From positions 14,613-78,612 of the IMG/VR virus record IMGVR_UViG_3300032038_000052: a stretch of DNA of 64,000 bases, one strand, 5' to 3'. This DNA comes from a virus. Lineage: Duplodnaviria; Caudoviricetes. Positions 2,903-20,590 of the stretch are shown piece by piece. The notes below the pieces were generated by a model that ran no database searches, had not been told where the DNA came from, and was given only the letters and a program-made list of their open reading frames with translations. Position 1 is the stretch's first letter; every line of letters begins with the position of its first letter. Both the position numbers and the translations under genes were made by a program.

Positions 2903-2932
2903 GGCTAGGTCATGTATTTATATGACTTAGCC
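2903..2932 (+). other. Hairpin upstream of the tRNA-like element
   Basis: GGCTAGGTCAT (2903-2913) / ATGACTTAGCC (2922-2932). Confidence 0.7.
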
Positions 2933-2938
2933 ATATTT

Positions 2939-2997
2939 GCTTCTGTGGCGCAATAGGTAGCGCAACTGATCTATGGTTCAAATCCATACACAGAAAT
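2939..2997 (+). pseudogene. tRNA-like element lacking most of the anticodon arm
   Basis: Acceptor-type pairing TTCTGTG/CACAGAA; D arm GCGC-AATAGGTA-GCGC; T arm TATGG-TTCAAAT-CCATA; only AACTGATC lies between the D and T arms. Confidence 0.75.
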
Positions 2998-3002
2998 TTA
3001 TT

Positions 3003-3101
3003 GAGCGGGTAGTATAAAGAAGTCATGAGCTTTATATTATGTACTATCCTATCCGGTGCATACCCGCTCTTATAATAAATAGGATAGGTGAAAGGATAGG
3101 A
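3003..3101 (+). promoter_or_regulatory. Structured leader: outer stem, inner hairpin, anti-SD and internal TATAAT
   Basis: GAGCGGGTA/TACCCGCTC stem; GTATAAAG/CTTTATAT hairpin; TCCTATCC (3047-3054) is complementary to GGATAGGA (3094-3101, RBS region); TATAAT at 3071-3076. Confidence 0.6.
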
Positions 3102-3107
3102 ATAAAT

Positions 3108-3734
3108 ATGAATAAAACAAAATAGATTGGATTAATAACTGAATTATCGTGCTAGTTATATCTTTCTTAGCTTGGGTACAATATTTGTACTCCATTATGC
3201 GAAGATTGTAGATATGACATGATTGCAGATTTTAATGGTATATTAAAAAAAATACAAGTTAAGACATGTCGTGAAAATAATAATAAGACTGGAATAGAAT
3301 TTTCAACCACTTCGACAAGAAGCAACTCTAGTGAAATTGTTAGGTAGAAATATTCAGAAAATGATGTTGATTATTTTGCGACATTCTATAATAATAAGTG
3401 CTACTTAATTAAGAATATCTATAGTAGCACATGTATTACATTACTATATGATGGGAATATCACTGGAAATGAGTGTATTCCAAAACATCTTTCTGATTAT
3501 GAATGTGAAAAACAGATTAAAAAAATATTAAATAATAATGAAGACACATTACCAAAAAGAGTAATATGCCAATATGATAAAAATTGGCAATTAATTGCAA
3601 CGTATAATTCCGTAAGGGGTGCTGCAAGAGCACTTGGAGACGAATTAAAAAATGCACATATTGCCGATGCAATTAATGGTAGACGCAAAATGGCATATGG
3701 ATTTTATTGGAAAGAAAATATAGATATATAGTAA
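3108..3734 (+). CDS. PD-(D/E)XK homing-type endonuclease (I-Ssp6803I/PDDEXK_5-like) with C-terminal NUMOD1-like DNA-binding domain; TAG=Gln; 208 aa
   Basis: Missing from the ORF track. With 5 TAG read as Gln: KQIGLITELSCQLYLSQLGYNICTPLCEDCRYDMIADFNGILKKIQVKT...DVDYFATF, then VICQYDKNWQLIATYNSVRGAARAL...INGRRKMAYGFYW; TAA stop. Confidence 0.8.
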
Positions 3735-3760
3735 TTTAATGATTAAAAGGAGGTGCTACG

Positions 3761-4957
3761 GTGGCCGTAGTAAAACAAGAAAAAAAAGTCCCCATAGCAC
3801 AAGTTCGGGCAGAAAATGAAAAGATGAAAAAGTTACTCGAGGATGGAGTAAGATGCATTGTCTGTGGGGTAATGAAAGACAAAAGCAAATTTTATGTGAA
3901 TACGAACCCTCGTTGTAAATGTGAAGTTGGGTGTGTTTGTAAAGAATGTGCTAGGAAAGTGGCTTTACAAGTTGATGATGACGGAATCGAGCATGGCGTT
4001 ACTAAAGAGTCTTGCATAGAGGCACTTAAACTTTTAAATAAACCGTTTGTTAATTCCGTATGGGATTCAAGTGTATAGGAATCTGATAACCTTGTTGCTG
4101 GGAAAACAAAGTCAAATCCTTGGGTCGCCTATATTAAAAATATCGCAATGGTCCAATGGGTTGGCATGGACTTCTTCGATTCTGATATGTTCAAGAAAGG
4201 TGTTGTTGGTGGTGGACAATATGTTGTTAAAGAGCCTACTACTGCTGAGGATTTGTCTGAAGATGTAAGAACTACTTATGAAATTAATAAGAAGACTACT
4301 CTTCGTTTTCTTGGCTATGATCCATTTGAAAATGAACCGCTTGAAGAACAGCCAATCTTATATGCTAAATTGGTAAGTTACTTTGATGATTCTGTAAGGG
4401 ATGACGGCTTAAAGCTTGAAGCCGTTATAGAGATTGTTCAAAGTTTCAAAGATATAAAAACAATTAATGATGCTATCTCAAAATATAAGAAACAGCTTGG
4501 GGAAAATCCGGCTGTCATTGCGACAATTAAGTCTCTTGCTGATACTAAGCAAAAGATGATTAATTCTGCACTAGCTCTTGCAAAAGACAATGGAATATCA
4601 GTCAACCATAATAACAGTAAGAGTAAGGGGGCTGGAACTCTCAGTGGTATTATTAAAGAGATGTCTGAGATGAATCTTGATGACATAGAAATTAATACAT
4701 TTGATTATGAAACAAATGCTGCCATATCTCAGATTATGGAGGCAAATTTTAAAAATCAGATGGAACAGCTTAACCCAGACGAAAATGATTGGGAACGAGA
4801 GGTGCAGCATCAAGCAAAATTGCTACATAAATTATAGAAAGAAAGGGACGACGCTGTCGAATATTGTAGGCTACTCAAAAAAGAAAACAAAGACTTAAAG
4901 GATTTTCTTATTGAGAAAAAAATAATCGATGAAGCGTTAAATGTGATAGATGAGTGA
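3761..4957 (+). CDS. Zn-finger-containing packaging-region protein (putative terminase small subunit); TAG=Gln
   Basis: GTG start with GGAGGT RBS; CIVC...CKEC motif; ORF-track pieces 3761..4078 and 4148..4837 share a frame; TGA overlaps the TerL start. TerS assignment is from position only. Confidence 0.7.
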
Positions 4958-6869
4958 AGAAATTGTTTTGTTGGGTGATAAAATAAAAGAATTTAACCCT
5001 AAGAATTTCACGTATTTTGTGAAGCCTACTTACTATGATATGTCTAATCTTAGGCTTGAAGGATTAAAGAAGACTGCTCAGATAGTTTAGTGGGGACGCA
5101 GAAACCCAGTAAAGTTTTGTGAGCGGTTTATGGGAATTGAATTCCTTGATTATTAGAAATATGTTTTTATGGAGAGCTGGATAACTCCGTATGTCGTTTG
5201 GTGTATGAGTAGATCTAGCGGTAAAACAACACTCGGCAGTCCTTTCTTAATGGCAAAGACTCTTCTACTTCCATACTTTGAGGGTTATATACTTTCTGGT
5301 ACTGGCGCACAAAGTATTGGAATGATGAAAAAGATTGAGGCAATAACCAAGAAAGAGATTGCTAGTTTTACTGGACTTACCGATGTATTTATGAATGAAC
5401 TTGTAAAGAGTCAAGCGAATTCAAATGGTTTTTCTCATAACCCAAATTCGTGGAGTTATAAATTGTATTCTGGTTCAACTATAGCTACGGTCAATTCAAA
5501 CTTTGATGCTAGTCGTGGTAAACGCTCACGATTAAATTTCTATGATGAGGCATCTTATGTTCTTGAAGATATGTATACTGCTACCCTTCCATTCGTAACA
5601 TAGAATTCAGACTTCGCACTTGGTGGAAATATTGATGTATCATTATTGCCGCCAAACTTCCCAAACCAAGTTATTTTTGCATCGTCTGCCGGATCTGTAG
5701 ATGATTATTTTTACAGAATGTATAAAGAATATTCTTTGCATAGTATGGCTGGGGACAAGAGATATGCTTGTTTTGATATAGACTGTGATTTAGTTATGAA
5801 TGCTACATACAATGGAAAAGTATATCCTGTTCCGCTTCTTACGCAAGAGAAGATAGATTCTGAAATGAAGATTAATCCTCTTAAGGCAAATAGGGAGTAT
5901 AGGAACAAATTTGATATCGATGGCGGCGACTAGATTATCGTTAAGAAATCACAGATTTTGAGGAATAGCGTTGTCAGAGCACCAGAACTTGTAAATGCAG
6001 ATGGTGACAGCTTATATGTTTTAGCATGGGACTTAGCTGCTAAAAAAGATAATAGTATCTTAAGTGTTGGCAAACTACTCCATTCTGATAAACGTGGTTG
6101 GTATATGGAAATTGTTAACTGTATTAATCTTCTTGACAAAGAGACTAGGAAACCACTAACTACTCCAGAACAGGTTAAGCGTGTATAGGAAGAGTTAATA
6201 AATTACAACGGCGTTGGAGTACCAGATTATGCGAATATCAAATATCTAATGATGGATGCTGGATCTGGTGGTGGTGCTACTTAGGTATTAGCTTATTTGT
6301 TTGATGATTTTTATGAAGAGCATCATAAAGGGGAAGAAGATTTTCATCACAAAGGATTGATGGATGAAACATATGAATTCTGCCAACCTTACATTAAGAG
6401 ATATCCAGATAATATAGATTTAATAAGAATGATTGAACCAACAAAGTATAAAGTACAAATGTATACTGAATTGATAGAATTGATTGAGCAGGATTTAATA
6501 TCATTTACTGCTGATTATGATTATCATGGTAATCTTACATTTCTCACAGAAGAAGATGGCGAGGAAAAGGAAGAGGTATACAAACTTAGTCTTGAGGAAG
6601 AGTAGGCATTAAAACAGATTGATGCTATGAAAGAGGAAGTGACTCATATGTATAGATATAAATCGTCGAACGGTAATATACGTTATGATCTTGCTCCTGG
6701 TTTTTCAAATATAATTGGTGATGATAGAAGCTATACGCTTTGTCTTTTGGCTCATTGTTTAGCGATGATGAGATAGGAAGATTAGATTCGTCAAAGAAAA
6801 AAACCTAATAGTGATGATTTGGTTAATCGCTTATCAATCCGTCCAGCAAGACGATTTAGTTCATTTTAA
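4950..6869 (+). CDS. terL: Terminase large subunit; TAG=Gln; 639 aa
   Basis: Walker A-like SRSSGKTT, Walker B-like NFYDEA, nuclease motifs LAWDLA, DAGSGGG and GDDRSY; 9 in-frame TAG (5088, 5154, 5601, 5931, 6186, 6282, 6603, 6774, 6783); TAA stop. Confidence 0.93.
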
Positions 6870-6883
6870 GGAGGTGTTTGCTG

Positions 6884-8392
6884 ATGGCAAATTCAACTGA
6901 GGTGTCTAAAGCGGCACCAGAAAAGATGAGTAAAGCAGAGTTTGTGAAACAATATTCGGATGAATATTTGAAACAACGTTTTGCTGATTCACAAGATGCC
7001 TTTAAGAAGTTAAGAGATTTTACTAAAAATTCCACCCGAAATGTTGGTGTTTTTGATAAAGAAACTCTTCGTGGATATTTTCAAAATATAGTTAGTAACG
7101 AAGCGAGACTAAGGAATTTATCTTGGTATTTATTCTATAGGTCGCAAGTATATGCTAGGCTTGTGCTGTTTTTCAGCAATATGTTTGTTCTTTATTGCAG
7201 ATCAGTGATACCGAATCATGATTTGACAAAGACAAATAATCCAACAAAGACATTAAAGTCTTTCTAGGAAACTGTTGATGAACTTGATAAGATGCGACTG
7301 CAACAGGAATTTTATCCAATATTTGTAACAAATTTTATATAGGATGTTAGTTATAATGTTTGGTTTGAGGATGATGATGGTGTTTTTGTTCTGCCATGGC
7401 CAGCGGATTCTGCGAGGATTATTGGTAAATATATGACTGGAGAATTTGCATATGCTGTTGATGCAACATACTTGCGTAGTCATCAAGAACTGATTGAATA
7501 TTTTCCAGAGCCATTTCAGCAGATATATAATGATTATCAATCTACTAGCGAGAAGTGGCAACCAATGCCTGAACAGTATTCTCTATGTACAAAGTACAGA
7601 TCAGAGGATACTGAGACAGCTCTTGGGCCACTCATGCCGATGGCTAATTCACTTATTAATTTGTTAGACCTTGAGGATATTCAAGCAGTAGCGGCGGAGC
7701 AGGAAATATATAAATTAATTTGGTATGAGTTGGAAACACTTGATGGCACTGATACTCCAGATGATTGGAAAGTAGATGTGGATTTGGCTGTTAACTATTT
7801 TAACAAAATGGTTGACGAAGCAATACCGCCGAATATGTCTGCTGCAATTGTCCCAGGTAAGTTGAATGAAATATCGTTCCCAGACAGTACTGCTTCTGAT
7901 ACTACCAAAGTTATGAAAGCGACAGAAACAGTTCTTAATACGGCTGGTGGTGCTGAAGTACTTAATGGAAGTACTATAAATAACACATATGCATTCAAGC
8001 TTGCGACACAAGTAAATACTGAATATGCTATTTCCTCTCTTCTCCCACAGGTGCAGAGTTGGGTTAATCATAGATTGCAATTAGTACTAAGCGATCCTTG
8101 CAAAGTAAAATTCTTCCCAGTTAGTGTTTATACACTTCCAGATTATAAAGAACAATTACTGACTGCTGCGCAAAATGGTTTCCCAACTATCTTTGCTTAT
8201 GGTGCTTGCAATGGGTATTCAGAGAAAGATGTTATAGCACTAAATAATCTTGAAGTAGATATTCTTAGTTTGGCAGATAAATTCAGACCGTTGAGCACAT
8301 CTTATACGCAGTCGAATGTTGGTAGACCAACAACTCCAGACGATGAGTTATCAGAATCTGGTGATAGAAGCAGAGATACTGCGGCAGAATGA
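6884..8392 (+). CDS. Portal protein; TAG=Gln; 502 aa
   Basis: Directly follows TerL; AGGAGGTG RBS; LRNLSWYLFYRSQVYARL motif typical of SPbeta-like portals; TAG at 7265 and 7340. Confidence 0.85.
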
Positions 8393-8409
8393 TTAAAGGG
8401 ATGGTATAA

Positions 8410-8589
8410 ATGAAAAATAAATTTATTAAGACAAATGATGAAAATACTGCAAAGTTGCTCCGAGATTCTGGGCTTGTTGAGCTTGCAAAAGAGGGCGATA
8501 AGTGGGTATTTGTTAATGAAAAAGATAAACTAAAATTTAGTACTGATGATTTGGAAGGATGTCATGTTTCAGACATCCTTCGTTTCTAA
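8410..8589 (+). CDS. Small hypothetical protein (59 aa)
   Basis: MKNKFIKTNDENTAKLLRDSGLVELAKEGDKWVFVN...; fills the portal-protease gap. Confidence 0.7.
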   Translation: MKNKFIKTNDENTAKLLRDSGLVELAKEGDKWVFVNEKDKLKFSTDDLEGCHVSDILRF

Positions 8590-8631
8590 TAATCTCCTCT
8601 CGGAGAAAATCTTGAGAAAGGAGTGAGTGTT

Positions 8632-10308
8632 TTGCATAGGAAACTGCTAACATTTGAAGACCTTGTGAAATTCTGCGATGAACATGATTTTACAAGGTTT
8701 AGTTCAAAAGAATCTGGATATCAGATTTGTGTGCAAATTCCAGCCTAGTTTAGTTAGGAAAAGTCCGATGACCCAACTATGTTATATGCAAATGTATTAG
8801 CTTTTCATACTGGCATTAATAGAAACCGATCCAACTTGACAGAAGATGCGGCTAAGAAAGCAATTAAGAACTTAGCATACAAGCCAGTGCTGGCGAACTT
8901 CTGTGAAATTGATGGTGTAAAAGATTTTACTAGCCATGATTTTGATGTAGATGAAAATGGCGAATATGTTTATTTTGAAAAGTAGATTGGGTGCTTTACA
9001 GCTGATAGTGCTTATATGGAGCAAGACCCAGATCACGATGATAGAATGAATGTTTATGCAAAAGTTGCAATACCTCGTGAGTATACTGATGCCGCTGAAA
9101 TCATTGAGCGTAAAAATGGTACTCGTGTTAGTGTTGAACTTGCTGTCAATGAGCTTTCTTATTCCGCTAAAGACAAAGTGCTTATGCTGGAAGATGTCGA
9201 TGTAATGGGACTTACATGCCTTGGCGTTGACCCAGATACTGGCGAAGAAGTCATGGAAGGTATGGAAGGTGCACATATTCAGATTGAGGATTTTAGCGTT
9301 GAGAATAATTCTCTTACTTTCAACGCTGAAATGATTAATTCGATTGCTGATGCCGTTGCAGAACGGCTTAGTAATAAAGCGGCAGATACCGCACAACTAT
9401 TAGAGGAAGGAGGAAAAAATCAAGTGAAATTTGATGAGTTATTAGAGAAATACGGCAAAACCGTAGAAGATATTGATTTCGATTATGAAGGACTAACGGA
9501 TGAAGAACTTGAAGAGGCATTTGCAAAAGCATTTGGCGAGGAAGAACCTTCTGCCTCTGAACCCGAAGAGAATCCAGAAGAAGATGAGCCTGTGAAAGAG
9601 TTTGCTGATGACGATCCAGTAGAGCCAGAAGAGCCTAGTGAACCTGAAGAGCCTGAGGCAGTAATTGATGATGATACTCTGCCAAGCAAAAAGATTACTC
9701 ATTCTGTAACATATGGTGAAATTACAAAGGATTTCTCTGTTAGTCTTCAAGACAAAATTTACGCTTTGAGTACGTTGGTTAATGACACATATTCTGAAAC
9801 GGATAATGCCTGGTATGATGTTACTGTGTATGATGATGAGAAATATGTTGTTATGAAAGACTGGTGGAATGACAAGGCATACAAGCAGTCCTATAAAGTC
9901 AAGAAAGATGTTTATTCACTTGTTGGAGATAGAGTTGCAGTATATGCACAGTATCTCACAGAAGATGAGATAAAGAAACTTGATGATATGAGGGCTAACT
10001 ACTCTTCTATGTCTGACAAACTTGCTCAGTATGAGGCGGAGCCAGAAAAGATGCAGATTCTGAATTCTGATGAATATTCTCAGATTGCAGAGACTGAAGA
10101 ATTTTCGGAGCTTAAGACTGTCGAAAAGCATTTTGATATGTCTGTAGAAGAAGTTAGAAAGGCTGCTGATGATTTACTTCTTGCGTTTGCAAAGAATAAC
10201 AAGCTTGAGTTCAACTCACAGCAAGAAAAGAAACCTGTTGGCGTAAAACTGTTTGGTCAAAAGAAATCAAATAAGACTGGACGGTATGGAAGTTTATTCA
10301 AAAAGTAA
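8632..10308 (+). CDS. Prohead protease fused to an acidic scaffold region (YonD-like); TAG=Gln; 558 aa
   Basis: TTG start after AAGGAG; LAFHTGINRNRS, YKPVLA, RVSVEL and GLTCLG motifs; E/P/D-rich linker; TAG at 8746, 8755 and 8983. Confidence 0.8.
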
Positions 10309-10340
10309 AATAAATATTAAATAAGAAAGGAGATATTGTT

Positions 10341-10820
10341 ATGGCTTATGGAAAACCCAATATGACTAAGCATGCTGTTGCTTTCCCGTCCAAGGTTCTG
10401 GCTGGAAGCATGGGTGCTCATATTTATAACATCACGCTCACCACAGCTGCTGATAACGGTAACGTAATCGGTCGTGGCGATTGGAATTCTTTTGATAATT
10501 ATGCTGAGGCGGCAGCTCCAAGTGGAATCACTGGTAAGATTGTCGATCAAGCAGCTAATGGCAACTGGTATGTAGAGATTACTGCTGTTCCAGCTGCTAA
10601 AGAGGCACTGGTTGTTTACAACTCCCCGATAATCCCTTATGAATCTCCGAGAGAACTCGCTGATCTCTCCAATTTCTTCAATGATGCAGATGAGGTTGTA
10701 AAGGCTTATGTTTGCACGGTTGGCGATATTTGGGAAGTATCCGAAGAAGGATTCTCTGGAACTCCAGCAAAGGGTAAAGCACTGACTGTTGCTTCTAAGA
10801 AGTGGGCTGTCGGAGCTTAA
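10341..10820 (+). CDS. Capsid decoration/auxiliary protein
   Basis: 159 aa between the protease and MCP genes; ADNGNVIGRG...VGDIWEVSEEGF pattern; strongly biased codon usage. Confidence 0.65.
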   Translation: MAYGKPNMTKHAVAFPSKVLAGSMGAHIYNITLTTAADNGNVIGRGDWNSFDNYAEAAAPSGITGKIVDQAANGNWYVEITAVPAAKEALVVYNSPIIPYESPRELADLSNFFNDADEVVKAYVCTVGDIWEVSEEGFSGTPAKGKALTVASKKWAVGA

Positions 10821-10851
10821 TTAAAATATTAAAGGAAGGAGGTAATAGAAT

Positions 10852-11982
10852 ATGAAGAAACTTAATTTTTCTGCTCATGTAATGAATGTATTCTCCGAGA
10901 TGGAGACTAATTATGATGAAGTAAAGAATCTTATGTTCGATCTTGCTATGGGCAATGAGATTTATGATGAAGAGTCTGGCCGTGTTGTTCCAAAGGCTGA
11001 AGCTGAAGCAAAACTGCGTAGCATTTGCCAGAAGGTATTTGGCGTAAATGAAAACTCTTCCAAGAGAGAACTTAAACGTGCTTACAGAGAGCATGGTCGT
11101 GAGTTCTTTGATATCATTGAGGAAGTTATTGATGTTGTAATCAGCAATGGCTTCAAGGATAATGAATTCTTCAACAACTTTGTTGATTATAGAAATATTG
11201 CACTTGGCGATGCTTATGAGTTCTATATGGAGAAAGATGTCATTCTTTCCATCGCTAAAGTTGGTGTAAGTCATCATGACTATATCCTTCAGAGACTTGG
11301 CAAGGGCGAGACTCTTACCATTCCTTATCAGAGATATGGTGCTGCAGTTGGTGCAGATATTAACATGTATATGATTGGTAGAGAAGACTGGACAAAGCTT
11401 ACCAATGCTATTGCAAAGGCATTTACTGTCCAGATTCAGCAAGAAATCTATGCAGAACTTCTGAATGCTGCAAATAAGATTCCGGCTGCAGTTAGAACTG
11501 GTTTTGTTGGAACTGGTGCACTTTCTGCTACCACAAAGGATGCTTTTGATGCAATCCTTGAGAATGTACAGACTGCAAATGAGTCTGCAATTGTAATTCT
11601 TGGTACTAAGACTGCTCTTAAGAAGCTGAATGCACTTTCCGATGTTAATTGGAGAGCACAGTCCCTTAAGGAAGATGTTTCTCATTCTGGAAGAATGGGT
11701 GACTATGAAGGTACTGTTCTGATGGAGATCCCGCAGAGATTTACTAGCCAGACAGATCTTACTCCGCTTATTGATAACACCAAGCTTTGGATTCTCCCGG
11801 CTGATTAGACTGATAAGTTTATCAAGATGGTCGATGTAGGCGAAACCGAAATTGATGAAATCACCGAGAAGGGCGAAGAGCATGGTCGCTGGGATGACAT
11901 CATGAAGTATGAAGTACAGCGTTCCTATGGTATTGCTACACAGCTTGGACGCTATTTTGGTCAGTGGACTCTTACTGCATGA
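10852..11982 (+). CDS. Major capsid protein; TAG=Gln; 376 aa
   Basis: Position and size; FFDIIEEVID...FFNNFVDYRNIALGD motif; one TAG at 11806-11808 followed by 57 more codons to TGA. Confidence 0.88.
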
Positions 11983-12016
11983 TGACTACTGATTTATGAT
12001 TAAAAGGAGATAACAA

Positions 12017-12583
12017 ATGGCAGCTACTAGAAAAAGAACTACAACTGCTACTGAACAAGTAGTAGAAAAGCCAGAAGTAAAAGTTACGGCACAAAAGGAA
12101 AAGCCTGTCGTAAAAGAGAAAAAGAAATTCTCTGATTCAGATGGTATTGTTTGCCGTTCTATTATTCAAGGCGGACTTTATATGGAAGGGGCCAAAACTC
12201 ATATGCTTTATGAATGGGTCGAATATGGAGACAAAACACAGGTTGAGTACGCTGATCTTGCGGCTGCTGTGAGAACGAGGTCTTCCTATTTATTCGGGCC
12301 AATGCTTATTATTGAAGACGAGGACTTTATTGAGGAATTCCCCCAACTAAAGAAGTTCTATACTGAGAACTATACAGTAAGTGATCTTGAAATGGTCCTT
12401 GCGTATCCGTTAGAAAGAATGCTTGAAGAAATTTCGGCACTTCCCAAAAGTGCCGTAGAATCTTTAAAAGTTCTTGCGGCATCTTCGATTAATGAAGGTA
12501 CACTTGATAGTGTTAAAAAGATTAAAGCACTTGATGAGATTTTTGGAACGAACTTAAGTTTATTAGCTGAGTTCAAAAATTAA
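12017..12583 (+). CDS. Hypothetical virion/head-associated protein
   Basis: 188-aa ORF with AGGAG RBS, directly after the MCP gene. Confidence 0.75.
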   Translation: MAATRKRTTTATEQVVEKPEVKVTAQKEKPVVKEKKKFSDSDGIVCRSIIQGGLYMEGAKTHMLYEWVEYGDKTQVEYADLAAAVRTRSSYLFGPMLIIEDEDFIEEFPQLKKFYTENYTVSDLEMVLAYPLERMLEEISALPKSAVESLKVLAASSINEGTLDSVKKIKALDEIFGTNLSLLAEFKN

Positions 12584-12603
12584 TTTAACGGAGGTGGTAT
12601 TAT

Positions 12604-13062
12604 ATGACCTCTGAATTTGAAGATATCTATTCACGGTTTTTTCTCCGTGTTGAAGATTACAATATTGTGGGCTTAGATACAAATCTAGTTAATGAAATGA
12701 TGAATGGATGGATGAAGTCTGTGTTATCACAGCCGTATATTAGACGGCTGTTTGATACATTGACATTCGATGAAGATATTGAACAGATTGAATATACAAT
12801 GAAATACCCTATCTCCGAAGATGAGGACAAGGATTTTGTAGAGGAATTGATTGCTCTTGGCATGGTAGCCGAATGGGTTTCCCCAAAGTATCATTCTACT
12901 CTTCTAACTTCTTAGTTTTATTCTAATAGCGAATAGAAATACTATTCTTAGGCTAATCATATGACCGAATTAAAGGATATGTACCATAGGGCTAAGAATG
13001 ATGTTCGCAAATTAATTAGAGACAGAGGGTATATAAATAACGTATATATAGGTGAGTCATGA
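12604..13062 (+). CDS. Putative head-tail adaptor; TAG=Gln
   Basis: MTSEFEDIYSRFF...; reads through 3 TAG to TGA 13060-13062, which overlaps the next ATG. Confidence 0.65.
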
Positions 13063-13391
13063 ATACTAAATATGGCTCATACTCTTCTGAGTAGATTAAT
13101 TCTGTAAAATACAAGATTCGAAAATCCATCTATTTTTTACTTCTTTATGTTGACCCACAAACTAGGGATGATTATCCCAATGTAAATGTTGCAGATGCGT
13201 TTCGCAGTTTGTAGCGTAAGCTCAATGGATTAAATAGTATTTTGCTTGAACCACCAGAATTGGTTCAAACCATGAGTCTTCTTGAAGCGGCATTGGCTGA
13301 GTTTTAGAGTGATTCTTTCAATTACCATACTTATAGGAAGCTGATATTGGATGCTGGGTCTGAGATTATGCGTGTAAAGGAAGGTGATTGA
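13059..13391 (+). CDS. Hypothetical neck-region protein; TAG=Gln; 110 aa
   Basis: MNTKYGSYSSEQINSVKYKIRKSIYFLLLY...; ATGA coupling to the previous gene; missing from the ORF track. Confidence 0.7.
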
Positions 13392-13392
13392 T

Positions 13393-14583
13393 ATGATTAC
13401 CTTTGCTGATTTTCAAAAGATACATAAGACAGATATCCCAGGTCGTGCAAGGAAAATGCAATCTGATATGATCATGGATGCTACATTTAACCAAGATATA
13501 CAATATTAGGTTGGATATTTTTTTGACTATTACCATACGACTCCAGAAAATCGGTTAAAGCTAGAAGGTTTTAATCCTAAAGATGATCCAAATCCTATTC
13601 CAATCGATGTGAAATTTATTGCGCATAGCAAAAAGACATATGAGAAGGATGAGGTAACAATGCATATTCAATTTCGTCCTGGACATGAATGTGCAGTTGA
13701 TTATTATGATGAAGTATTTGGCAAACGTTATAATGCTAGATACCCAATAGGTTTATATGTATGGTTATAGGGAGAAGATGGTATCTATAGACGTTGGCTA
13801 GTGGTTGCTACTGCCGACAGGGATAAAAATCAATTCCCAACTTGGGAAGTATTGCGCTGTGATGAAATATATAGGTGGATAAAGAACGGGAAATATTATG
13901 AGTTTCCAGGTGTTAGCAGAAGCCAGAATTCATATAACTCTGGACTTTGGTTGGATTATAAATTTCAACAGCCAGAAGACCAGGTTAAGTTCTGCTTACC
14001 ATTAAATCGTGATACGGAAATGCTTTATTATAATACCTACCTAGTGATTGATGCTCACGTACTTACTGAGCCAAGAGTTTGGCAAATCAGTAAGATAAAT
14101 CGTTCGAATTCAAAAGGTGTTGTAGTGTTTACTTGCGCACAGGATCTTGCGAATTAGCATACTCTAAAAGCGGATTATGATGAAGATGGTAACGTGACCG
14201 CTTGGTGGGCGGATTGGAATGAAACCGAGGTCGCTCCAACTCCTGCTATTGTTGACAACAGCGAACACGATGAATTAGTCACAGCGAAAATAACATGTTC
14301 TGGGAAACCGCAATTTAAGGTTGGCGGTTCTTCAAAGACATTTACAATTTCGTATTATGACGATGATGTTATTATACAAGACCACGAGGTTGGCACTTGG
14401 TCATTTTCGATTGATGGCGAAAATGTCAATGATGAACTTTTGAGCATAATCAGTACAGATGATGCCAATAAGATTAAAGTTAAGTTCTTGGGTGATGACA
14501 TGTATGTCGGCAAAATACTAACAGTTACAAACACATTTGAAGATGTCACTGCATCTATGCAAATTGAAATCATCGCATTATAA
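13393..14583 (+). CDS. Putative head-closure/neck protein with C-terminal Ig-like domain; TAG=Gln; 396 aa
   Basis: Track pieces 13801..14157 and 14194..14583 share a frame with ATG 13393; beta-rich C-terminus. Confidence 0.65.
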
Positions 14584-14594
14584 GGAGGGATAGC

Positions 14595-15164
14595 ATGGAT
14601 TTGACGAATGAACAACTTCAAACTCTCCTTCAGTATAAAACTGTAATGGATGATGACAATGTGCGTTTTAAAGAAATTATTAAAAAAAGTTTGATAGATG
14701 ATCCATTGATTATCTATTTGCTTAATAACAAGGAGTTGGAGAGCGTCGAGGCAGATCCTAGCGACTATCTCGGCGTTAACATACTCCCAGCTTTTTTAAT
14801 TCATCCTACATAGCACAATGTCTAGAACTTTATTTGTTATGAGACATCATGGAAAGAAATGCCAAGATATAATGGGAATGCTACAAAGTTACAACAGATT
14901 ATTTTTTATGTTTTGTGTGAAGAAAAGACAAACATAGAAAAACGTACTGGTATAGCACGCCATGATTTAATTGGTGCGAGGATTAAAGATATATTTAATT
15001 GGACCAACAAATTTGGTACACAATGCCATGTTGTATCTGATGTCCCATCTGTAACAGATAATGATTACGCAACAAGAACTATAACGTTTGAATTGCTTAG
15101 TGTTAATGATATCGTCAAGACGAGAAATGGTTCTTCTTTGGTGGTGAATAAGATTGGCGGATAA
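14595..15164 (+). CDS. Putative tail terminator/completion protein; TAG=Gln
   Basis: In-frame join of 14595..14813 and 14859..15164; GGAGG RBS; position before the tail genes. Confidence 0.6.
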
Positions 15165-15960
15165 ACAGAATCAGCCTAAATTTGACCGTCTAAAGATGTA
15201 TTTCGGAGAACCATTTGAAGTTGGAAATGGTATGACAGTATTGATACCAACTGTTGGGGATATACTGAGATTAGATAATTCCGACATAACATTTTATCAG
15301 ACGTTATATATTTGGATTGCGAATCCTACAACTTATAGATTAATGCTATGGGACAATGGTATTGATTGGAATAAAATTTCTGATTATGAATTGTTTTTGA
15401 TGTTATATAAAACCGAAAATCCAGATGTCAGCAAAATGATGTTTGGTAACGTGGACTTTCAGTAGTTTGGACTATTCCATAAAACTGTCTAGGAAAAGAA
15501 TGAAGACGGAGAAATGGTTGATGTATAGAAAGTTACTTTATATAGTCCCGAATAGGATATAGAAATATCTGAGTAGGATTATACTCTTATTTCTTAGTAT
15601 TTAAAAGCTGCTTTCAATATATATCCAAAAGTAGAAAAGGCGAAGGGACGGATTACAAAAGAATCAATTATTGAAGAAGAGCGCATGAACCTTATAGCTA
15701 AGGAGCGCAAAGGAGAAGATATACCTACATCTTCTCTTCTTCCATTGATATCTTCTTGTATTAACCATCCTGGATTTAAGTATAACCTTAATGAACTCCG
15801 TGAAGTTAATTTTGTTCAATTTATGGATAGCGTACAGAGACTACAAATCTATGAGTCTACTTCTGCTCTTTTGAAGGGAGCATATTCTGGTTTCTGTGAT
15901 ACATCAAAAATTGATAAGGATGAATTCAATTTTATGAGGGATATAGTTCCCGCAAAATAA
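15154..15960 (+). CDS. Conserved hypothetical tail-region protein; TAG=Gln
   Basis: TTG start; 15154..15465 and 15685..15960 share a frame and are separated only by TAGs. Confidence 0.7.
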
Positions 15961-16005
15961 CTATGTTTATAACAAATTAATATTATAGAAAAGGAGGATA
16001 TGATT

Positions 16006-16800
16006 ATGGCCTTTAAGTTAGATGACCTTATTATTGACCGCATATAGGTGGCTACTGCTGAGGATTCTCATGGTAATGTTCTTTATACTCTGACTCAGCT
16101 TTAGGAAGCAACTATCAATATCTCCGCAGAGTCTAACGATGTTACCGACAAAGACGGCAACCTTGTGAAGAGATTCTGGAGAGCAAAGACTGGTGAGTTC
16201 ACTGCAACTAACGCATTCATCAATCTGAACATCCTTGGTGAGGAAGCTGGTTCTGGTAAGATGGAAGCAAATGCAACTCGCAAGATCACCGCTCCTGGTA
16301 TCATTGTTGCAAAAGCTTCTAATGGAGCTACTGTTACCCTTGCTAATGTAACTGGCACTCCAAAGGTTTATGGCATGGAGACCAATGGCACTCTTGGCAC
16401 TGAGTTCCAGACAGGTGGAACAGCTACTGCTACTACTTTTGTATATGATGACCAAACTGGCGTTGTAACTCTGCCTCTGAGCGGTGATTATGTTCAGTAT
16501 CTCATCCGTTATGACCGTGAGCTTACTTCTGGTGCGGTTGAGATGACCAACATGGCAGATAAGTTCCCTGGCACAATCCGTCTTGTGCTTAAGGTTCTGT
16601 GCGTAGACCCATGCGAAGCTGATACTTTACGTGCAGCATATATTGATATCCCGTCCTTCCAGGTTAGCCCTGAGAGTGAAGTTTCTCTGAGTTCTGATAA
16701 TCAGACTATTGATTTCAGCGGATCTCTCCAGGTTGACTATTGTGATGCCGACAAGCGCCTTTACAGCATCTATGTTGTAGAAGATGACGAGGAAGAGTAA
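16006..16800 (+). CDS. Major tail (tube) protein; TAG=Gln; 264 aa
   Basis: AGGAGG RBS; MAFKLDDLIIDRIQVAT...QLQEATINISAESNDVTDKDGNLV; TAG at 16045 and 16102; IPSFQVSPE motif; followed by a hairpin. Confidence 0.8.
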
Positions 16801-16819
16801 TTGTAAATTTGACTTAATT

Positions 16820-16860
16820 AGAGTAGCTAGTGTAAAAGCTAGCTACTCTTCTATAATTTT
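16820..16860 (+). terminator. Terminator-like hairpin (loop TGTAAAAG)
   Basis: AGAGTAGCTAG / CTAGCTACTCT, perfect 11-bp stem. Confidence 0.65.
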
Positions 16861-16949
16861 TGCTCTATTTCAATCCCTCAGAATGAGGCAATATCATATG
16901 GGGCAAAGAATTAGACAATAAGGAATTGATATAGAGGAGGAATTATATT

Positions 16950-17435
16950 ATGGCAAAAGAAGGAAGATTTGATAGATATTGTACTGTATGCGGAAAGCAT
17001 TATGAATACTGCCCGACATGTAGCAGGTTTGCACATATGGAGCGTTGGCATGATGCCTATTGCTGTGCGAACTGTAAAGACCTTTATAACGTAACTGCTG
17101 GGTTTATTAATCATTGGCAGGAGCCAGAGGTGGAAGCTGCTAGGCTTCAAAAGTTAGATTTATCATACAAGAATAAACTTCCAGCATGGATGCAAGCGAC
17201 AATCAAAGATATTCAGCGTGTAGAGTTGAATAACGCTAATGAGGCTGTTGTTGAAAAGGTAGTTACAGAACCAGCTACGGAAGTTGTAGTTGAAGAAGTA
17301 AAAGATGAAGTTAAAGAAGATAAGAAAGTTGATAAAGCTGAGACAGAAGAAAAAAATGTTACGGCTCAACTTCACAAGTTTGAGAAAAAAGTAAATACTC
17401 AAAATAAATATAAGCCAAATAAATTTGGAAAATAA
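16950..17435 (+). CDS. Cys-rich (Zn-binding) hypothetical protein
   Basis: CTVC...CPTC...CCANC motif; E/K-rich C-terminus; GAGGAGG RBS. Confidence 0.75.
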   Translation: MAKEGRFDRYCTVCGKHYEYCPTCSRFAHMERWHDAYCCANCKDLYNVTAGFINHWQEPEVEAARLQKLDLSYKNKLPAWMQATIKDIQRVELNNANEAVVEKVVTEPATEVVVEEVKDEVKEDKKVDKAETEEKNVTAQLHKFEKKVNTQNKYKPNKFGK

Positions 17436-17520
17436 TAGTGAATGTGATTAAATACAACCATAGTTAAACAGGTATAGTTTAACTATTAATAATGGGACTA
17501 GGTATATTTCTTAGTCTAGC

Positions 17521-17557
17521 GGGGTTGGCTCACATTCATGAGCTAACCCCTTTTTTT
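17521..17557 (+). terminator. Rho-independent terminator
   Basis: GGGGTTGGCTCA / TGAGCTAACCCC followed by T7. Confidence 0.8.
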
Positions 17558-17590
17558 ACCATTTTTAATGAGCAAAAGGAGTAAAAGGAT

Positions 17591-17866
17591 ATGGATAGAG
17601 ACAATATAGTTCATTCCGATGTAACAGGAAAAGACTACTATCCATCTTAGGTTGTTCGATTGGTGAATATTCGATAGATATGTAGTTATATGCGTCTTGG
17701 AAAAATCCCAGTAGATATTTATCCATCTATTGATTTTAAGTCGAACAATCCTGTATTGGTAGTTTTGTTTGATAGGAATGATACAAAAGAGGCATATAAC
17801 CGATGGTGTGAAAGCACAAACTTGTGGGAGGAACTGTAGAATGAAGCCAATGATTTACATGGATAA
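17591..17866 (+). CDS. Hypothetical protein (DUF5659-like); TAG=Gln
   Basis: MDRDNIVHSDVTGKDYYPSQVVRLVNIRQ...VVLFDRNDTKEAYNRWC; 3 TAG; TAA stop. Confidence 0.65.
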
Positions 17867-18977
17867 TGCGGCAACGACAAAACCATTCGCAGATGTTGTG
17901 GAGGCAATGATTCCATATTACAAAGATAGCTTCTATAATCCTTCTGCCAACTATGATATGGCTTATGATGTAAATGATGTATTGCAAGATTGCCGTAAAA
18001 CAATAGCTAATACTATTGGATGTGAAGCAAATGAAATATATTTTACATCTGGTGGAACTGAATCCGACAATTGGGCATTGCGTTATGCACAGCCTGGTCA
18101 ACATATTATAACGTCAAAGATAGAGCATCATGCGGTTCTTAATACTTGTAAATACCTTGAGTCAATTGGGGTAGATGTTAGTTATATAAATGTTGATGAG
18201 CATGGAATGATAATACTAGAGGAGTTGGAAAAAAGTATTAAGACAAATACTTCTCTTATATCTATCATGACTGCCAATAATGAAATTGGTACTATTCAGC
18301 CCATATTGGATATAGCCAAAATCGCTTTTGATTATGGTATTGCATTTCATACTGATGCAGTACAAGCCTATGGACATAAGGAATTGGATGTTAATGAATT
18401 AGGGATTGATATGTTGAGCGCAAGTGCTCATAAATTTAATGGACCAAAAGGTGTTGGATTTTTGTATGTAAATAAGTGTATTAAATTACAACCGTTTATT
18501 TTAGGTGGTATGCAACAAGGCGGCATGAGGGCTGGTACTGAAAATGTTCCTGGTATAGTTGGTATGGCTAAAGCAGCTGATCTGTCGTGCGATTTAGATA
18601 ATATATATCATAGGGCAATTGTTGCTGGTCTTAGGGATTATATGCTAAGTAAAATTAAAGCTGAAATTCCTAATATTATTGTAAATGGAGATTTACATAA
18701 TAGATTACAAAATAATCTGAATATATCATTTATTGGAATTCGTGGCGAACAGTTATTAAGCCAATTAGCAATGAATGGCATCTACGCATCAACTGGTTCT
18801 GCTTGCAATGCATTTTCTCCAGAGCCATCACATGTGTTAAAGGCAATCGGGCTATCTGATGAAGATGCAAGTTCTAGTATTAGGTTCACGTTGTCTAAAG
18901 AAAATACTATAGATGAGATTAATTATACTGTTGATGTATTGAAGAGAAGTGTTGAAGATTTAAGGAGAATTGGATGA
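17841..18977 (+). CDS. iscS: Cysteine desulfurase (IscS/NifS, PLP-dependent); 378 aa
   Basis: IYMDNAATT, FTSGGTESDN, EHHAV, HTDAVQ, SAHKFNGPKGVG (PLP Lys), GTENV, STGSAC (catalytic Cys); GGGAGG RBS; no TAG. Confidence 0.95.
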   Translation: MKPMIYMDNAATTKPFADVVEAMIPYYKDSFYNPSANYDMAYDVNDVLQDCRKTIANTIGCEANEIYFTSGGTESDNWALRYAQPGQHIITSKIEHHAVLNTCKYLESIGVDVSYINVDEHGMIILEELEKSIKTNTSLISIMTANNEIGTIQPILDIAKIAFDYGIAFHTDAVQAYGHKELDVNELGIDMLSASAHKFNGPKGVGFLYVNKCIKLQPFILGGMQQGGMRAGTENVPGIVGMAKAADLSCDLDNIYHRAIVAGLRDYMLSKIKAEIPNIIVNGDLHNRLQNNLNISFIGIRGEQLLSQLAMNGIYASTGSACNAFSPEPSHVLKAIGLSDEDASSSIRFTLSKENTIDEINYTVDVLKRSVEDLRRIG

Positions 18978-19231
18978 AGCATATAGAAAAGGTAAGAAAG
19001 GCTTATGTACTATGTTCAATAGATAATACAGGTAAAACGTGTTATCTAAGAAGCCTACATGAGCCTGGAAAGTGGGAAATTACTACAAATATTGAGGAAG
19101 CAACAAAGTATGCGACTTCTGGTGCGGCTGATTTATCTTATGATTTTTATCAGCATGAATTAGGATCTGATGCGGGGGTGTTTGTTAAAATTCCACTTGA
19201 GATTGAATACAGATTAGTGAAAGAAGAATAA
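18974..19231 (+). CDS. Hypothetical protein
   Basis: 85-aa ORF coupled to iscS by an ATGA overlap. Confidence 0.7.
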   Translation: MKHIEKVRKAYVLCSIDNTGKTCYLRSLHEPGKWEITTNIEEATKYATSGAADLSYDFYQHELGSDAGVFVKIPLEIEYRLVKEE

Positions 19232-19246
19232 TTAAATTGTTATGTA

Positions 19247-19270
19247 GGCCCTCATTTTATGAGGGCTTTT
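19247..19270 (+). terminator. Hairpin/terminator immediately upstream of the tRNA
   Basis: GGCCCTCAT / ATGAGGGCT followed by TTT. Confidence 0.55.
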
Positions 19271-19275
19271 ATTAT

Positions 19276-19346
19276 TGGGGTGTGGTGTAATGGAAGCACA
19301 GGAGGCCCTAACCCTCTTGATCTCAGTTCGACCCTGAGCGCCCCCG
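19276..19346 (+). tRNA. Amber suppressor tRNA (anticodon CUA), probably charged with Gln
   Basis: Cloverleaf: acceptor TGGGGTG/CGCCCCC with discriminator G73; D arm GTGT-AATGGAA-GCAC; anticodon stem GGAGG/CCTCT with loop CC-CTA-AC (CTA at 19308-19310); T arm CTCAG-TTCGACC-CTGAG; no encoded CCA. Confidence 0.92.
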
Positions 19347-19350
19347 TTCT

Positions 19351-19455
19351 ATGCGAGAAAACATAAGGAGTAATTACCCTTGTGCGAGAGTAATCCCTAA
19401 CTCTCATTTCTCGCATTTATTACAATTAGGGGTGGATTACTACAGGGAGGTAATG
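19351..19455 (+). promoter_or_regulatory. Structured leader: outer stem, inner hairpin, anti-SD and internal TACAAT
   Basis: ATGCGAGAAA/TTTCTCGCAT stem; GAGAG/CTCTC hairpin whose loop TAATCCCTAA complements TTAGGG..GATTA downstream; ATTACC(CT) complements the GGGAGGTAAT RBS; TACAAT at 19421-19426. Confidence 0.6.
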
Positions 19456-19457
19456 CT

Positions 19458-20345
19458 GTGGGGAATAGATATATTTTTAAATAGTCTTTTGAAGATTGGT
19501 GTATTACAAATAATAGAGAAGACATTCTACAATTATGGGATTACGACAAAAATGATGTTTTGCCGTCTGAAGTACCATTTGGAACCAAGAAAAAATATTA
19601 TTTTTGTTGTCCAGCTGGTATACATGAGAGCGTATAGAAAAAAATATATGCTGTGACTGAAAAAACAACAAGAAAAATGGTCTGTAAGTATTGTAACGGC
19701 GGGGTTTATTGGAATAACACTAAAGAAGATTTTTCGGGTAGACAAATAGGAGAACTACATGTTATTGGGCTAGATGAAGAGAAAACCAAAAATGGACAAT
19801 ATTATTGGGCGTGCGAGTGTTCTTGTGGGAATATTGTTTCTGTCAGTTCTTCAAAATTAAAAAGTGGAAAGAAGACTACGTGTGGTGGGCAATATAGACA
19901 TAAAGCGCCATAGTGGATAGAGCCAGATGGCGGGTTAGATTCATATAATTCACAATATCTAAGAGAGCTTCGTACTAGTCCGTTGTATTATGAATATAGA
20001 CGAGCAGTTCAAGAAAAGGACAATTGGAGTTGTATTGTTTGTGGTTCACATAAAGATATTGAGGTACATCATATTTATCCGTTTGCAGCGTATCCGCATG
20101 AAAGATTTAATCCTAATACTGGAATATGTATGTGCAAAATACATCATAGTATTAGTAGCCCTATTAGTTTCCACAGTATATATGGAAGATTTGGTAATAC
20201 GCCAGAGTAGCTTGAGCAATATGTAAATTTTATGCGAAAAGAACTAGGTATTTTAGAATATTTTGATGTTTATAAATACATGGATAATTATGAGTCTGAT
20301 AATATAGATATTGATGACTCAATGTTAATAGATTTATATGAATAA
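19458..20345 (+). CDS. HNH homing-type endonuclease with N-terminal zinc-ribbon (DUF4379-like) and CECSCG module; TAG=Gln; 295 aa
   Basis: GTG start after GGGAGG; LWDYDKN..EVPFGTKKKYYFCC; WACECSCGN; CIVCGSHKDIEVHHIYPF..E.FNPNTGICMCKIHH; 4 TAG; TAA stop. Confidence 0.85.
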
Positions 20346-20365
20346 ATCTAAGGAGGTAAAAGGAT

Positions 20366-20590
20366 ATGAAAGATTATTATGTAAATACACGTAAATGTAT
20401 AGACACATACAATAATTATGTGAATGTAGTATTTAAAGACCATGAAGAACTCTCAGATGATAGAGATGAATTTCTTTAGAATTTTTGCTTACATCTTGCT
20501 CATGCATTAATCAAAGACACTGGTTCTGGATAGCTTGCAAGAGATGAACTGGGTAAGATGGCTGATATTATTAATGATGTTGTAAGGTGA
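20366..20590 (+). CDS. Hypothetical protein; TAG=Gln
   Basis: 74 aa; AGGA RBS; 2 TAG; TGA stop. Confidence 0.6.

Follow-up and report, generated by a model that had tools for sequence, protein, structure and literature searches.

What moves when a nuclease gene settles beside a tRNA gene, the nuclease gene alone or the tRNA with it? The question is raised by two loci, A and B, in a stretch of phage DNA of 64,000 nucleotides (nt), here called the window, which represents bases 14613-78612 of one 78.6-kb phage contig (IMGVR_UViG_3300032038_000052). At each locus a terminator-like hairpin, a tRNA or tRNA-like element and a structured leader RNA precede an open reading frame (ORF) for a nuclease, and an earlier inspection of the letters (hereafter the sequence-only reading) had taken these rows for two tRNA-anchored mobile cassettes, the second of which might spread a recoding tRNA between related phages. 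We consider it probable that both loci are insertions of free-standing homing-endonuclease genes at tRNA loci, placed under a single family of leader RNAs. On this reading the nucleases home to tRNA loci without taking the tRNA along; between strains, nuclease genes are gained and lost while the tRNAs are not.

The source is an SPbeta-like phage of the cattle gut in which TAG is recoded to glutamine. Neighbouring genes match Pfam families named for genes of Bacillus phage SPbeta (YomU, YonJ, and YonG), the phage is found in bovine gut metagenomes of a dozen studies, and the ORFs of the window are open only when TAG is read as an amino acid; in protein P0001 a TAG codon is aligned to CAA of the L112 homologue. 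The contig is probably partial because the IMG/VR relatives of this phage measure 125-217 kb.

All parts of the two loci lie on the + strand of the window. The nuclease of locus A (3108..3734; 208 amino acids, five TAG codons) comprises a PDDEXK_5 domain (E 1.6e-19) and a NUMOD-like DNA-binding tail, with matches in Pfam and PHROG, and that of locus B (19458..20345; 295 amino acids, four TAG codons) a DUF4379 treble-clef zinc finger and an HNH domain. Both proteins therefore join a nuclease domain to a DNA-binding module, as homing endonucleases do, and at both loci collinear close relatives differ in the presence of the nuclease gene. The eight parts named by the sequence-only reading (two hairpins, the suppressor tRNA, an anticodon-less tRNA-like element, two leaders and two nucleases) were all recovered at or within a few bases of where it had placed them, and its observation that unrelated nucleases share one architecture holds; both stand behind members of the same leader family.

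Alleles of both loci were collected from other cattle-gut contigs and from loci fetched via near-identical neighbour proteins. Contigs from other samples join across both nuclease genes, which gives nuclease-free alleles with flanks 92-97% identical to those of the window. At locus A the nuclease-free form (flanks 92-93% identical; the nuclease is absent from strains X2 and X4 and from L080-L084) consists of a hairpin, an intact tRNA-Thr(UGU), a tRNA-Asn(GUU), a small hairpin and the YonG-like gene P0004. Nuclease-plus alleles match it as far as position 33 of the tRNA-Thr and continue with a 25-nt T-arm/acceptor piece, the leader and the ORF. The "anticodon-less tRNA" is thus a chimera, because nuclease-free strains keep an intact tRNA-Thr which is shared through position 33. 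Its 5' half (2939..2971) is positions 1-33 of tRNA-Thr(UGU), up to the anticodon loop, with 1-7 differences in 33 nt from the intact genes of L081, L083, and L090; its 3' part (2972..2996), unlike the 3' half of the resident tRNA-Thr, supplies a foreign T-arm, a 7-nt acceptor-3' strand and a discriminator base. The foreign strand pairs with 2941-2947 and so completes an anticodon-less tRNA-like fold (predicted fold z-score -2.6); the pairing is perfect and involves bases 3-9 of the resident half, which accounts for the absence of the 8-9 linker. Scored with the Rfam tRNA model, the element at 2941-2996 reaches 31.9 bits (gathering score 29); it is not a complete cloverleaf, as 17 anticodon-arm positions of the model are reduced to 2 nt and positions 8-9 are missing; ARAGORN, run on the window, does not call it as a tRNA. 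L112, which has a nuclease of only 81% identity, preserves 23 of the 25 nt of the T-arm/acceptor piece, and this hints at a function of the chimera. Judging from these alleles, the chimera appears to have arisen as the cassette entered the anticodon loop of tRNA-Thr, and cassette A appears to have destroyed the resident tRNA-Thr and removed tRNA-Asn, the tRNA gene being its probable target or landing site.

Relatives of nuclease A point to the same site. The protein aligns over residues 2-93 with I-Ssp6803I (PDB 2OST; E 3.3e-9), including the conserved D...QVK motif, and three homologues from other phages (52-57% identity) interrupt tRNA genes in the anticodon loop; when the halves are joined in silico after the anticodon, tRNA-Thr(UGU) is obtained. 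The anticodon region of tRNA-Thr is thereby suggested as the homing site of the nuclease A family, and the anticodon loop as a candidate cleavage site. The split-tRNA inserts (L113:1435-2200, L114:1435-2180, L118:1434-2175) measure about 675 nt, nearly all of it the PD-(D/E)XK ORF, with about 35 nt before the ORF and about 12 nt after; their conserved ends can pair (TTGTAA with TTACAA), and an alternative junction would give the anticodon UCA. The three-way-junction leader is absent from these inserts. A group I intron (Rfam Intron_gpI) was matched neither in the window nor in L114, and no 3' exon follows the ORF in the window.

Locus B presents the complementary case of a tRNA left intact. 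The amber-suppressor tRNA (anticodon CUA; 19276..19346) was called by ARAGORN and by the Rfam tRNA model (43.3 bits), has Gln-type acceptor features and C33, and combines a cloverleaf with the CUA anticodon in a genome whose ORFs need TAG readthrough. It is resident: a CUA tRNA occurs in every allele of the locus, and at least eight contigs without the HNH gene, as well as three sequencing runs, have the identical one in this position (e.g., the HNH-free alleles L091 and L097). Five allele forms occur. B0 has the tRNA, 18 nt of leader and a 74-amino-acid gene; B1 has the tRNA, a mini-leader made of the outer stem and hairpin 2, and the 74-amino-acid gene; B2, that of the window, has the tRNA, the full leader, the HNH gene and the 74-amino-acid gene; B3 (L095) has a variant CUA tRNA with a variant full leader, inside which the contig ends; and B4 (L098) has a class-II (long variable arm) CUA tRNA, no leader, and the 74-amino-acid gene. 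Contigs of three other studies, as well as L096, L097, L100, L101, and L103, have 39 nt in place of window positions 19382-20351. The variable part of the locus is the HNH gene with hairpin 3 and the tail of the leader, and the tRNA and the 74-amino-acid gene are resident. The latter (20366..20590, function unassigned) is the resident neighbour of the suppressor tRNA in every allele; it follows directly after the tRNA in HNH-free alleles and in L098, and after the HNH homologue in L001. Three more distant relatives, in which the neighbouring gene is 33-42% identical, have neither a tRNA nor a leader nor an HNH homologue at the corresponding position, with synteny too weak for these to be called empty sites.

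The terminator-like hairpins in front of the tRNAs had been counted as cassette parts and turn out to be resident as well. They were called by an intrinsic-terminator-like scan that gave two and three sites per region against 0.5 expected; the hairpin at 2903..2932, 3' of a 179-amino-acid gene, is also present in the nuclease-free L081 and L083, outside the cassette, and that at 19246..19268, 3' of an 85-amino-acid gene, occurs in all alleles of its locus.

The idea of tRNA-anchored mobile cassettes is consequently retained in one half: leader and nuclease are inserted or deleted at tRNA genes in strains 92-97% identical, but the tRNA is not cargo. The suppressor tRNA of locus B stays in place in all HNH-free alleles, and the tRNA-Thr of locus A is destroyed. 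A rival view nevertheless has tRNA, leader and nuclease move as a single unit, the nuclease taking the tRNA beside it, the recoding suppressor included, from phage to phage by co-conversion, for which T4 SegB provides a precedent at a tRNA cluster (PMC2988022). Several relatives speak in its favour. L001 holds at the locus-A position, beside a YonG-like protein 91% identical to P0004 of the window, a block of class-II CUA tRNA, B-type leader, HNH protein and 74-amino-acid homologue; L073 has a B-type leader after a homologous CUA tRNA, and then a different ORF; in L095 a variant CUA tRNA goes together with a variant full leader; and four different CUA tRNAs occupy one slot among close relatives. 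To the right of cassette A, 30 fixed differences separate nuclease-plus from nuclease-minus sequences (window 3736-4600 vs L081, L083, and L084; 5 vs 3 sequences compared); 24 lie at 160-470 nt from the junction, and within 800 nt on the left there is only one, a clustering which fits co-conversion, in a small sample. Yet the CUA tRNA is found unchanged in HNH-free contigs, the L001 tRNA is non-homologous to that of the window while the HNH proteins are only 49% identical, and cassette A destroys its tRNA instead of carrying it. The locus B data do not show a nuclease carrying a tRNA, and the spread of the recoding tRNA by cassette B, as it had been proposed, is not supported, the suppressor being kept in all HNH-free alleles. 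We therefore regard the single mobile unit as unlikely. The suppressor slot itself is a recombination hot spot, and block transfer or co-conversion of suppressor tRNAs may occur there, given the four CUA tRNAs and the L001 block. The class-II CUA tRNAs in this slot (L098:1558-1649, L001:4189-4276) show no relationship to one another or to the window's Gln-like tRNA. The window tRNA carries C33 (loop CC-CUA-AC), whereas U33, the usual base, is found in the L095 and L073 variants. In nuclease-free strains (L081:3086-3159; L083:3086-3159) the resident tRNA-Thr(UGU) likewise has C33, with the loops CCTGTAA and TCTGTAA.

The second component common to the two loci is the leader, and leaders A and B are members of one covarying RNA family. 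Rfam matched neither of them, whether the window was scanned at the gathering score or the two leader regions at E up to 10. The family was recovered from 61 related loci 5' of the YonG-like gene (P0004), which hold a variable tRNA array and, in many cases, an element of about 100 nt with the hairpin-2 loop of leader A. A first covariance model, built from 17 such elements of relatives only, finds window 3000-3114 (leader A) at 40 bits; a second model (R2), built from the matches of the first and including no B-type sequence, finds leader B at 19350-19456 at 31 bits (E about 1e-3), L001 at 40 bits and L073 at 30 bits. Over the 64-kb window the models give no significant match besides leaders A and B. 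A search with a pattern of the outer stem of B type gave mainly chance inverted repeats, the only relevant hits being L073 and L070 (the contig of L001).

The common fold consists of a closing stem of 7-10 bp, hairpin 2, hairpin 3 and a pseudoknot in which the loop of hairpin 3 (L3) pairs with the tail. Already in an unfitted MAFFT alignment the pseudoknot shows a compensatory change from A-U to U-A, with 100% of cells paired. In the model-fitted alignment of 42 distinct sequences, each of the 19 base pairs has changes in both partners, with 90-99% of cells paired, depending on the helix; none of 500 shuffles reached the observed covariation, and although an alignment of this kind is biased toward structure, slid controls collapse. 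The covarying structure which the sequence-only reading had called for is thus present, and models built on relatives retrieve both leaders of the window. Two further regularities concern the loops. A 6-nt palindrome (TCATGA, TGATCA, TAGCTA, TTGCAA or TAATTA) is present in 11 of the 12 distinct loops of hairpin 2, against 6-21% of shuffled loops; what is conserved is self-complementarity, not sequence, and the simplest reading is a loop-loop pairing of two RNA molecules. In most variants L3 has two complementary, purine-rich sites in the tail, X1 upstream and X2 at or just after a Shine-Dalgarno sequence of the GAAAGG or GGAGG type, and L3, X1, and X2 co-vary across about 17 variants.

In leader A the three-way-junction core (3003..3069; covariance-model matches of 40.4 and 62.5 bits, supported by the covariation of the family) is closed by the outer stem S1 (3003-3009 with 3063-3069) and contains hairpin 2 (3013-3036; loop 3020-3029 with the palindrome TCATGA) and hairpin 3 (3038-3062; L3 at 3045-3055). 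Its tail (3070..3107) includes an A/T-rich TATAAT-like spacer, X1 (3081-3089), the GAAAGG Shine-Dalgarno core (3090-3095) and X2 (3094-3103). L3 matches the tail over 8 nt at two sites, X1 and X2 (1.6% of shuffles are as good), and is paired with X2 in the minimum-energy fold. The core of leader B (19351..19416) scores 31.4 bits with model R2 and has a predicted fold of z-score -2.7; it is composed of S1 (19351-19360 with 19407-19416), hairpin 2 (19362-19384; loop 19369-19377 with the palindrome TAATTA) and hairpin 3 (19386-19405; L3 at 19391-19400). It shows compensatory changes relative to L001, L073, and L095. In its tail (19417..19457), X1 (19426-19439) and X2, overlapping the GGAGG Shine-Dalgarno sequence (19444-19454), are both complementary to L3. 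In the leader B copy alone the L3 match of 6 nt is not significant (20% of shuffles reach it); L3, X1, and X2 vary in concert in L001 and L073. A TATAAT-like A/T stretch 3' of the outer stem would be the candidate for an internal late promoter such as gives T-even homing-endonuclease genes transcripts free of the masking strand, but a scan of sigma-70 type found no promoter at this place.

What follows the leader is an ORF from one of several unrelated families (HNH, HNH-repeat, GIY-YIG with NUMOD1, PD-(D/E)XK and a few others), and at one locus a nearly identical leader stands ahead of four different ORFs. The ORF of L073 begins with MNKTK, which suggested a PD-(D/E)XK nuclease; this assignment was rejected, as Pfam gave no match. 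A member with a short hairpin 3 and no clear match between L3 and tail precedes a tyrosine recombinase (Phage_integrase) in L010:552-651, L008:551-648, and L041:569-668. In L052:5887-6000 a leader core lies right after a tRNA-Thr and 5' of the YonG-like gene itself, with neither decoy site nor nuclease ORF, and looks like a remnant left by nuclease loss.

The leaders keep a characteristic distance to tRNAs. The outer stem begins 6 nt 3' of the discriminator base of the tRNA-like element at locus A (at 3003) and 4 nt 3' of that of the suppressor tRNA at locus B (at 19351), in agreement with the earlier estimate of about 5 nt. Across the family it starts 2-6 nt past the 3' end of a tRNA or tRNA-like element in both leaders of the window and in L001, L003, L052, L054, L056, L073, and L095; at least eight lineages show this spacing. 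Elsewhere, the motif GAGAATAAATAT and a stable hairpin stand ahead of many leaders, often just after a tRNA-Tyr (L027:4506-4567, L015:505-555, L106, L109), and may represent a phage promoter plus a 5' hairpin; the motif is not enriched in the window. An element 5' of many leaders (stem arms CCAACTAT and ATGGTTGG) was considered as a tRNA minihelix and discarded, as Rfam gives no support and it folds as a plain hairpin.

Some of these data weigh against homing-endonuclease insertion under one tRNA-linked leader. In about 30 related loci, the largest subgroup, the leader follows the promoter-like motif and a plain hairpin instead of a tRNA, so that coupling to tRNAs is frequent and not obligatory. 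The HNH-free allele B1 retains the outer stem and hairpin 2, and part of the leader may accordingly be resident, or B1 may be a deletion scar. In some variants X2 adjoins the Shine-Dalgarno sequence rather than covering it. For the 25-nt T-arm/acceptor piece of the chimera, no intact counterpart was found among 198 tRNAs of related loci. Finally, with only 5 vs 3 sequences, the fixed differences beside cassette A could reflect population structure and not co-conversion.

The place of the leader just behind a tRNA fits a self-cleaving ribozyme of the theta or hepatitis delta virus (HDV) type that matures the 3' end of the upstream tRNA, as theta ribozymes lie in the same position. The fold decides against this identity: the leader has a closing stem, two local hairpins and one distant pseudoknot, and theta/HDV-like ribozymes a nested double pseudoknot (P1, P2, P3, P1.1, P4). 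Neither P2, P4 nor the catalytic cytosine of J4/2 is present, hairpin 2 is local with covarying pairs, and the L3 pairing is a distant one of 6-9 bp. Since, moreover, no junction nucleotide is invariant across leader variants, the Rfam ribozymes give no match at E up to 10 and many copies have no upstream tRNA, a ribozyme is very improbable. A leader that is chiefly an exonuclease-blocking fold, similar to the exonuclease-resistant RNA (xrRNA) of flaviviruses, or a stable dimeric non-coding RNA behind which nucleases merely insert as they would at any conserved DNA, fares somewhat better and is still improbable in our judgement. It would agree with the topology (a three-way junction plus a pseudoknot from L3 to a downstream site), with the locus that keeps its leader constant while the ORF behind is swapped, with the leader without nuclease in L052 and, partly, in allele B1, and with the palindromic loop kept in the HNH-free B1. 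On the other side, L3 has a further match on or next to the ribosome-binding site, and this suggests translational control; the putative contact of the 5' end with the junction (three pairs), which would close a ring as in xrRNA, has just 70% of cells paired; and the nuclease-free allele of locus A has no leader at all.

Under the favoured explanation, that of free-standing nucleases inserted at tRNA loci, the following course of events is proposed. A PD-(D/E)XK nuclease of the I-Ssp6803I type would have entered the resident tRNA-Thr(UGU) at its anticodon loop, replacing the 3' half of this tRNA and the tRNA-Asn and leaving a chimeric, anticodon-less tRNA-like element; at locus B, an HNH gene with the 3' two-thirds of the leader would have been placed between the resident suppressor tRNA and the 74-amino-acid gene. 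The tRNA or tRNA-like element, leader and nuclease are presumably co-transcribed, and RNase P and RNase Z would cut out the tRNA or tRNA-like element. The outer stem, 2-6 nt from the new 5' end, could then shield the nuclease mRNA. Pairing of L3 to X1, the decoy, would leave the ribosome-binding site free and pairing to X2 would block it, and these alternatives, possibly with loop-loop dimerisation, may hold translation of the nuclease low or late. Early in-frame TAG codons occur in both nucleases (codons 6, 16, and 21 in A; codon 9, common to the L001 homologue, in B), and their synthesis would therefore also depend on the suppressor tRNA. Most likely, going by structure and position, the leader caps the mRNA end produced by tRNA excision and gates translation. 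A bolder proposal, to which we give little credence, makes the leader a phage counterpart of viral exonuclease-resistant RNA coupled to tRNA processing: excision would make the mRNA, the fold, 2-6 nt from the new 5'-monophosphate end, would block decay of the RNase J type, a kissing dimer through the palindromes would switch L3 between the decoy and the ribosome-binding site, and the chimeric tRNA would be kept as a processing signal ("t-element").

A few observations on the phage complete the picture. One frame of 5359 amino acids at window 22376-38455 contains 107 in-frame TAG codons. About 1.3 kb without credible ORF (L068:12902-14190) precede the window on the same contig, directly 5' of a tRNA-Pro(UGG) at contig positions 14191-14263. 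A DNA similarity search against deposited phages returned nothing useful, and single-protein locus searches with a 426-amino-acid structural protein, P0001, and P0002 found no relatives among viral contigs. RNA-labelled public runs contain only small shares of this phage and were kept as contigs.

These loci bring together stop-codon recoding, the use of tRNA genes as landing sites by selfish nucleases, and the control of nucleases at the RNA level. Nuclease A and the anticodon loop of tRNA-Thr(UGU) constitute a concrete candidate pair of enzyme and target, and the nuclease-plus and nuclease-minus alleles of nearly identical strains are natural controls for homing. The leader is a compact, rule-based RNA element with a loop directed against the ribosome-binding site, a decoy site and a self-complementary loop; if it does guard 5' ends generated by tRNA excision, it would represent a new route of mRNA maturation in bacteria and phages. 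The instability of the suppressor-tRNA slot bears on the spread and upkeep of alternative genetic codes.

Several known systems resemble parts of this arrangement. The dimerisation initiation site of HIV-1 (human immunodeficiency virus 1) is a hairpin loop of 9-10 nt with a central 6-nt palindrome flanked by purines; the hairpin-2 loop of the leader is similar, here in a phage mRNA leader, where dimerisation is putative. In mosquito-borne flaviviruses Xrn1 halts 5-6 nt before P1 of the xrRNA, and West Nile xrRNA also blocks the bacterial RNase J1 (PMC5760640). The leader shares with these RNAs the three-way junction, the pseudoknot from the P3 loop to a downstream site and a single-stranded 5' stub of about 5 nt, but has no conserved junction bases, and its pseudoknot partner is duplicated and lies 9-21 nt downstream; its exonuclease resistance is putative. 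For theta ribozymes the cleavage site is at most 5 nt away from the 3' end of a phage tRNA, and one in five stands behind a suppressor tRNA of a recoded gut phage (PMC10879173). The likeness is that of a structured RNA a few nt past the 3' end of a phage tRNA, often a suppressor, in recoded gut phages; unlike theta ribozymes, the leader has another fold and no catalytic core, and its RNA runs on into the ORF.

For the nucleases, I-Ssp6803I is the PD-(D/E)XK homing endonuclease of a group I intron in Synechocystis tRNA-fMet and is associated with the anticodon loop (PMC1995217). Nuclease A shares the homology of the catalytic domain and the association with a tRNA anticodon loop but differs in its additional NUMOD-type DNA-binding tail and in the lack of any detected group I intron; the window has lost the 3' half of the tRNA, so that there is nothing to splice back. 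As in the hairpins that sequester the ribosome-binding site of I-TevI, I-TevII, I-TevIII, segB, and mobE, an upstream strand is predicted here to be complementary to the ribosome-binding region of the nuclease mRNA; unlike them, it is the loop of an arm of a three-way junction, accompanied by a decoy target and a self-complementary loop. T4 SegB and other seg/mob genes are free-standing, lie between or next to phage tRNA genes and vary in presence between related phages, and homing-endonuclease genes of T-even phages have ribosome-binding sites masked in RNA hairpins (PMC2988022). The present loci agree with them in their free-standing nuclease genes at phage tRNAs, their variable presence and a ribosome-binding site predicted to be masked by RNA structure. 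They depart from them in that three nuclease superfamilies stand under one three-way-junction leader and not under simple hairpins, in that one insertion splits a tRNA gene, and in that ORFs with in-frame TAG need a phage suppressor tRNA. In line with the earlier remark, no prior description of the architecture was found in Rfam or in the papers searched, but its ingredients have precedents in T4 SegB, the T-even hairpins and I-Ssp6803I. Free-standing homing endonucleases at tRNA genes and RNA control of their translation are known kinds of phenomena; to these the two loci add an uncatalogued leader family, which is well supported, and a set of unusually clear natural alleles.

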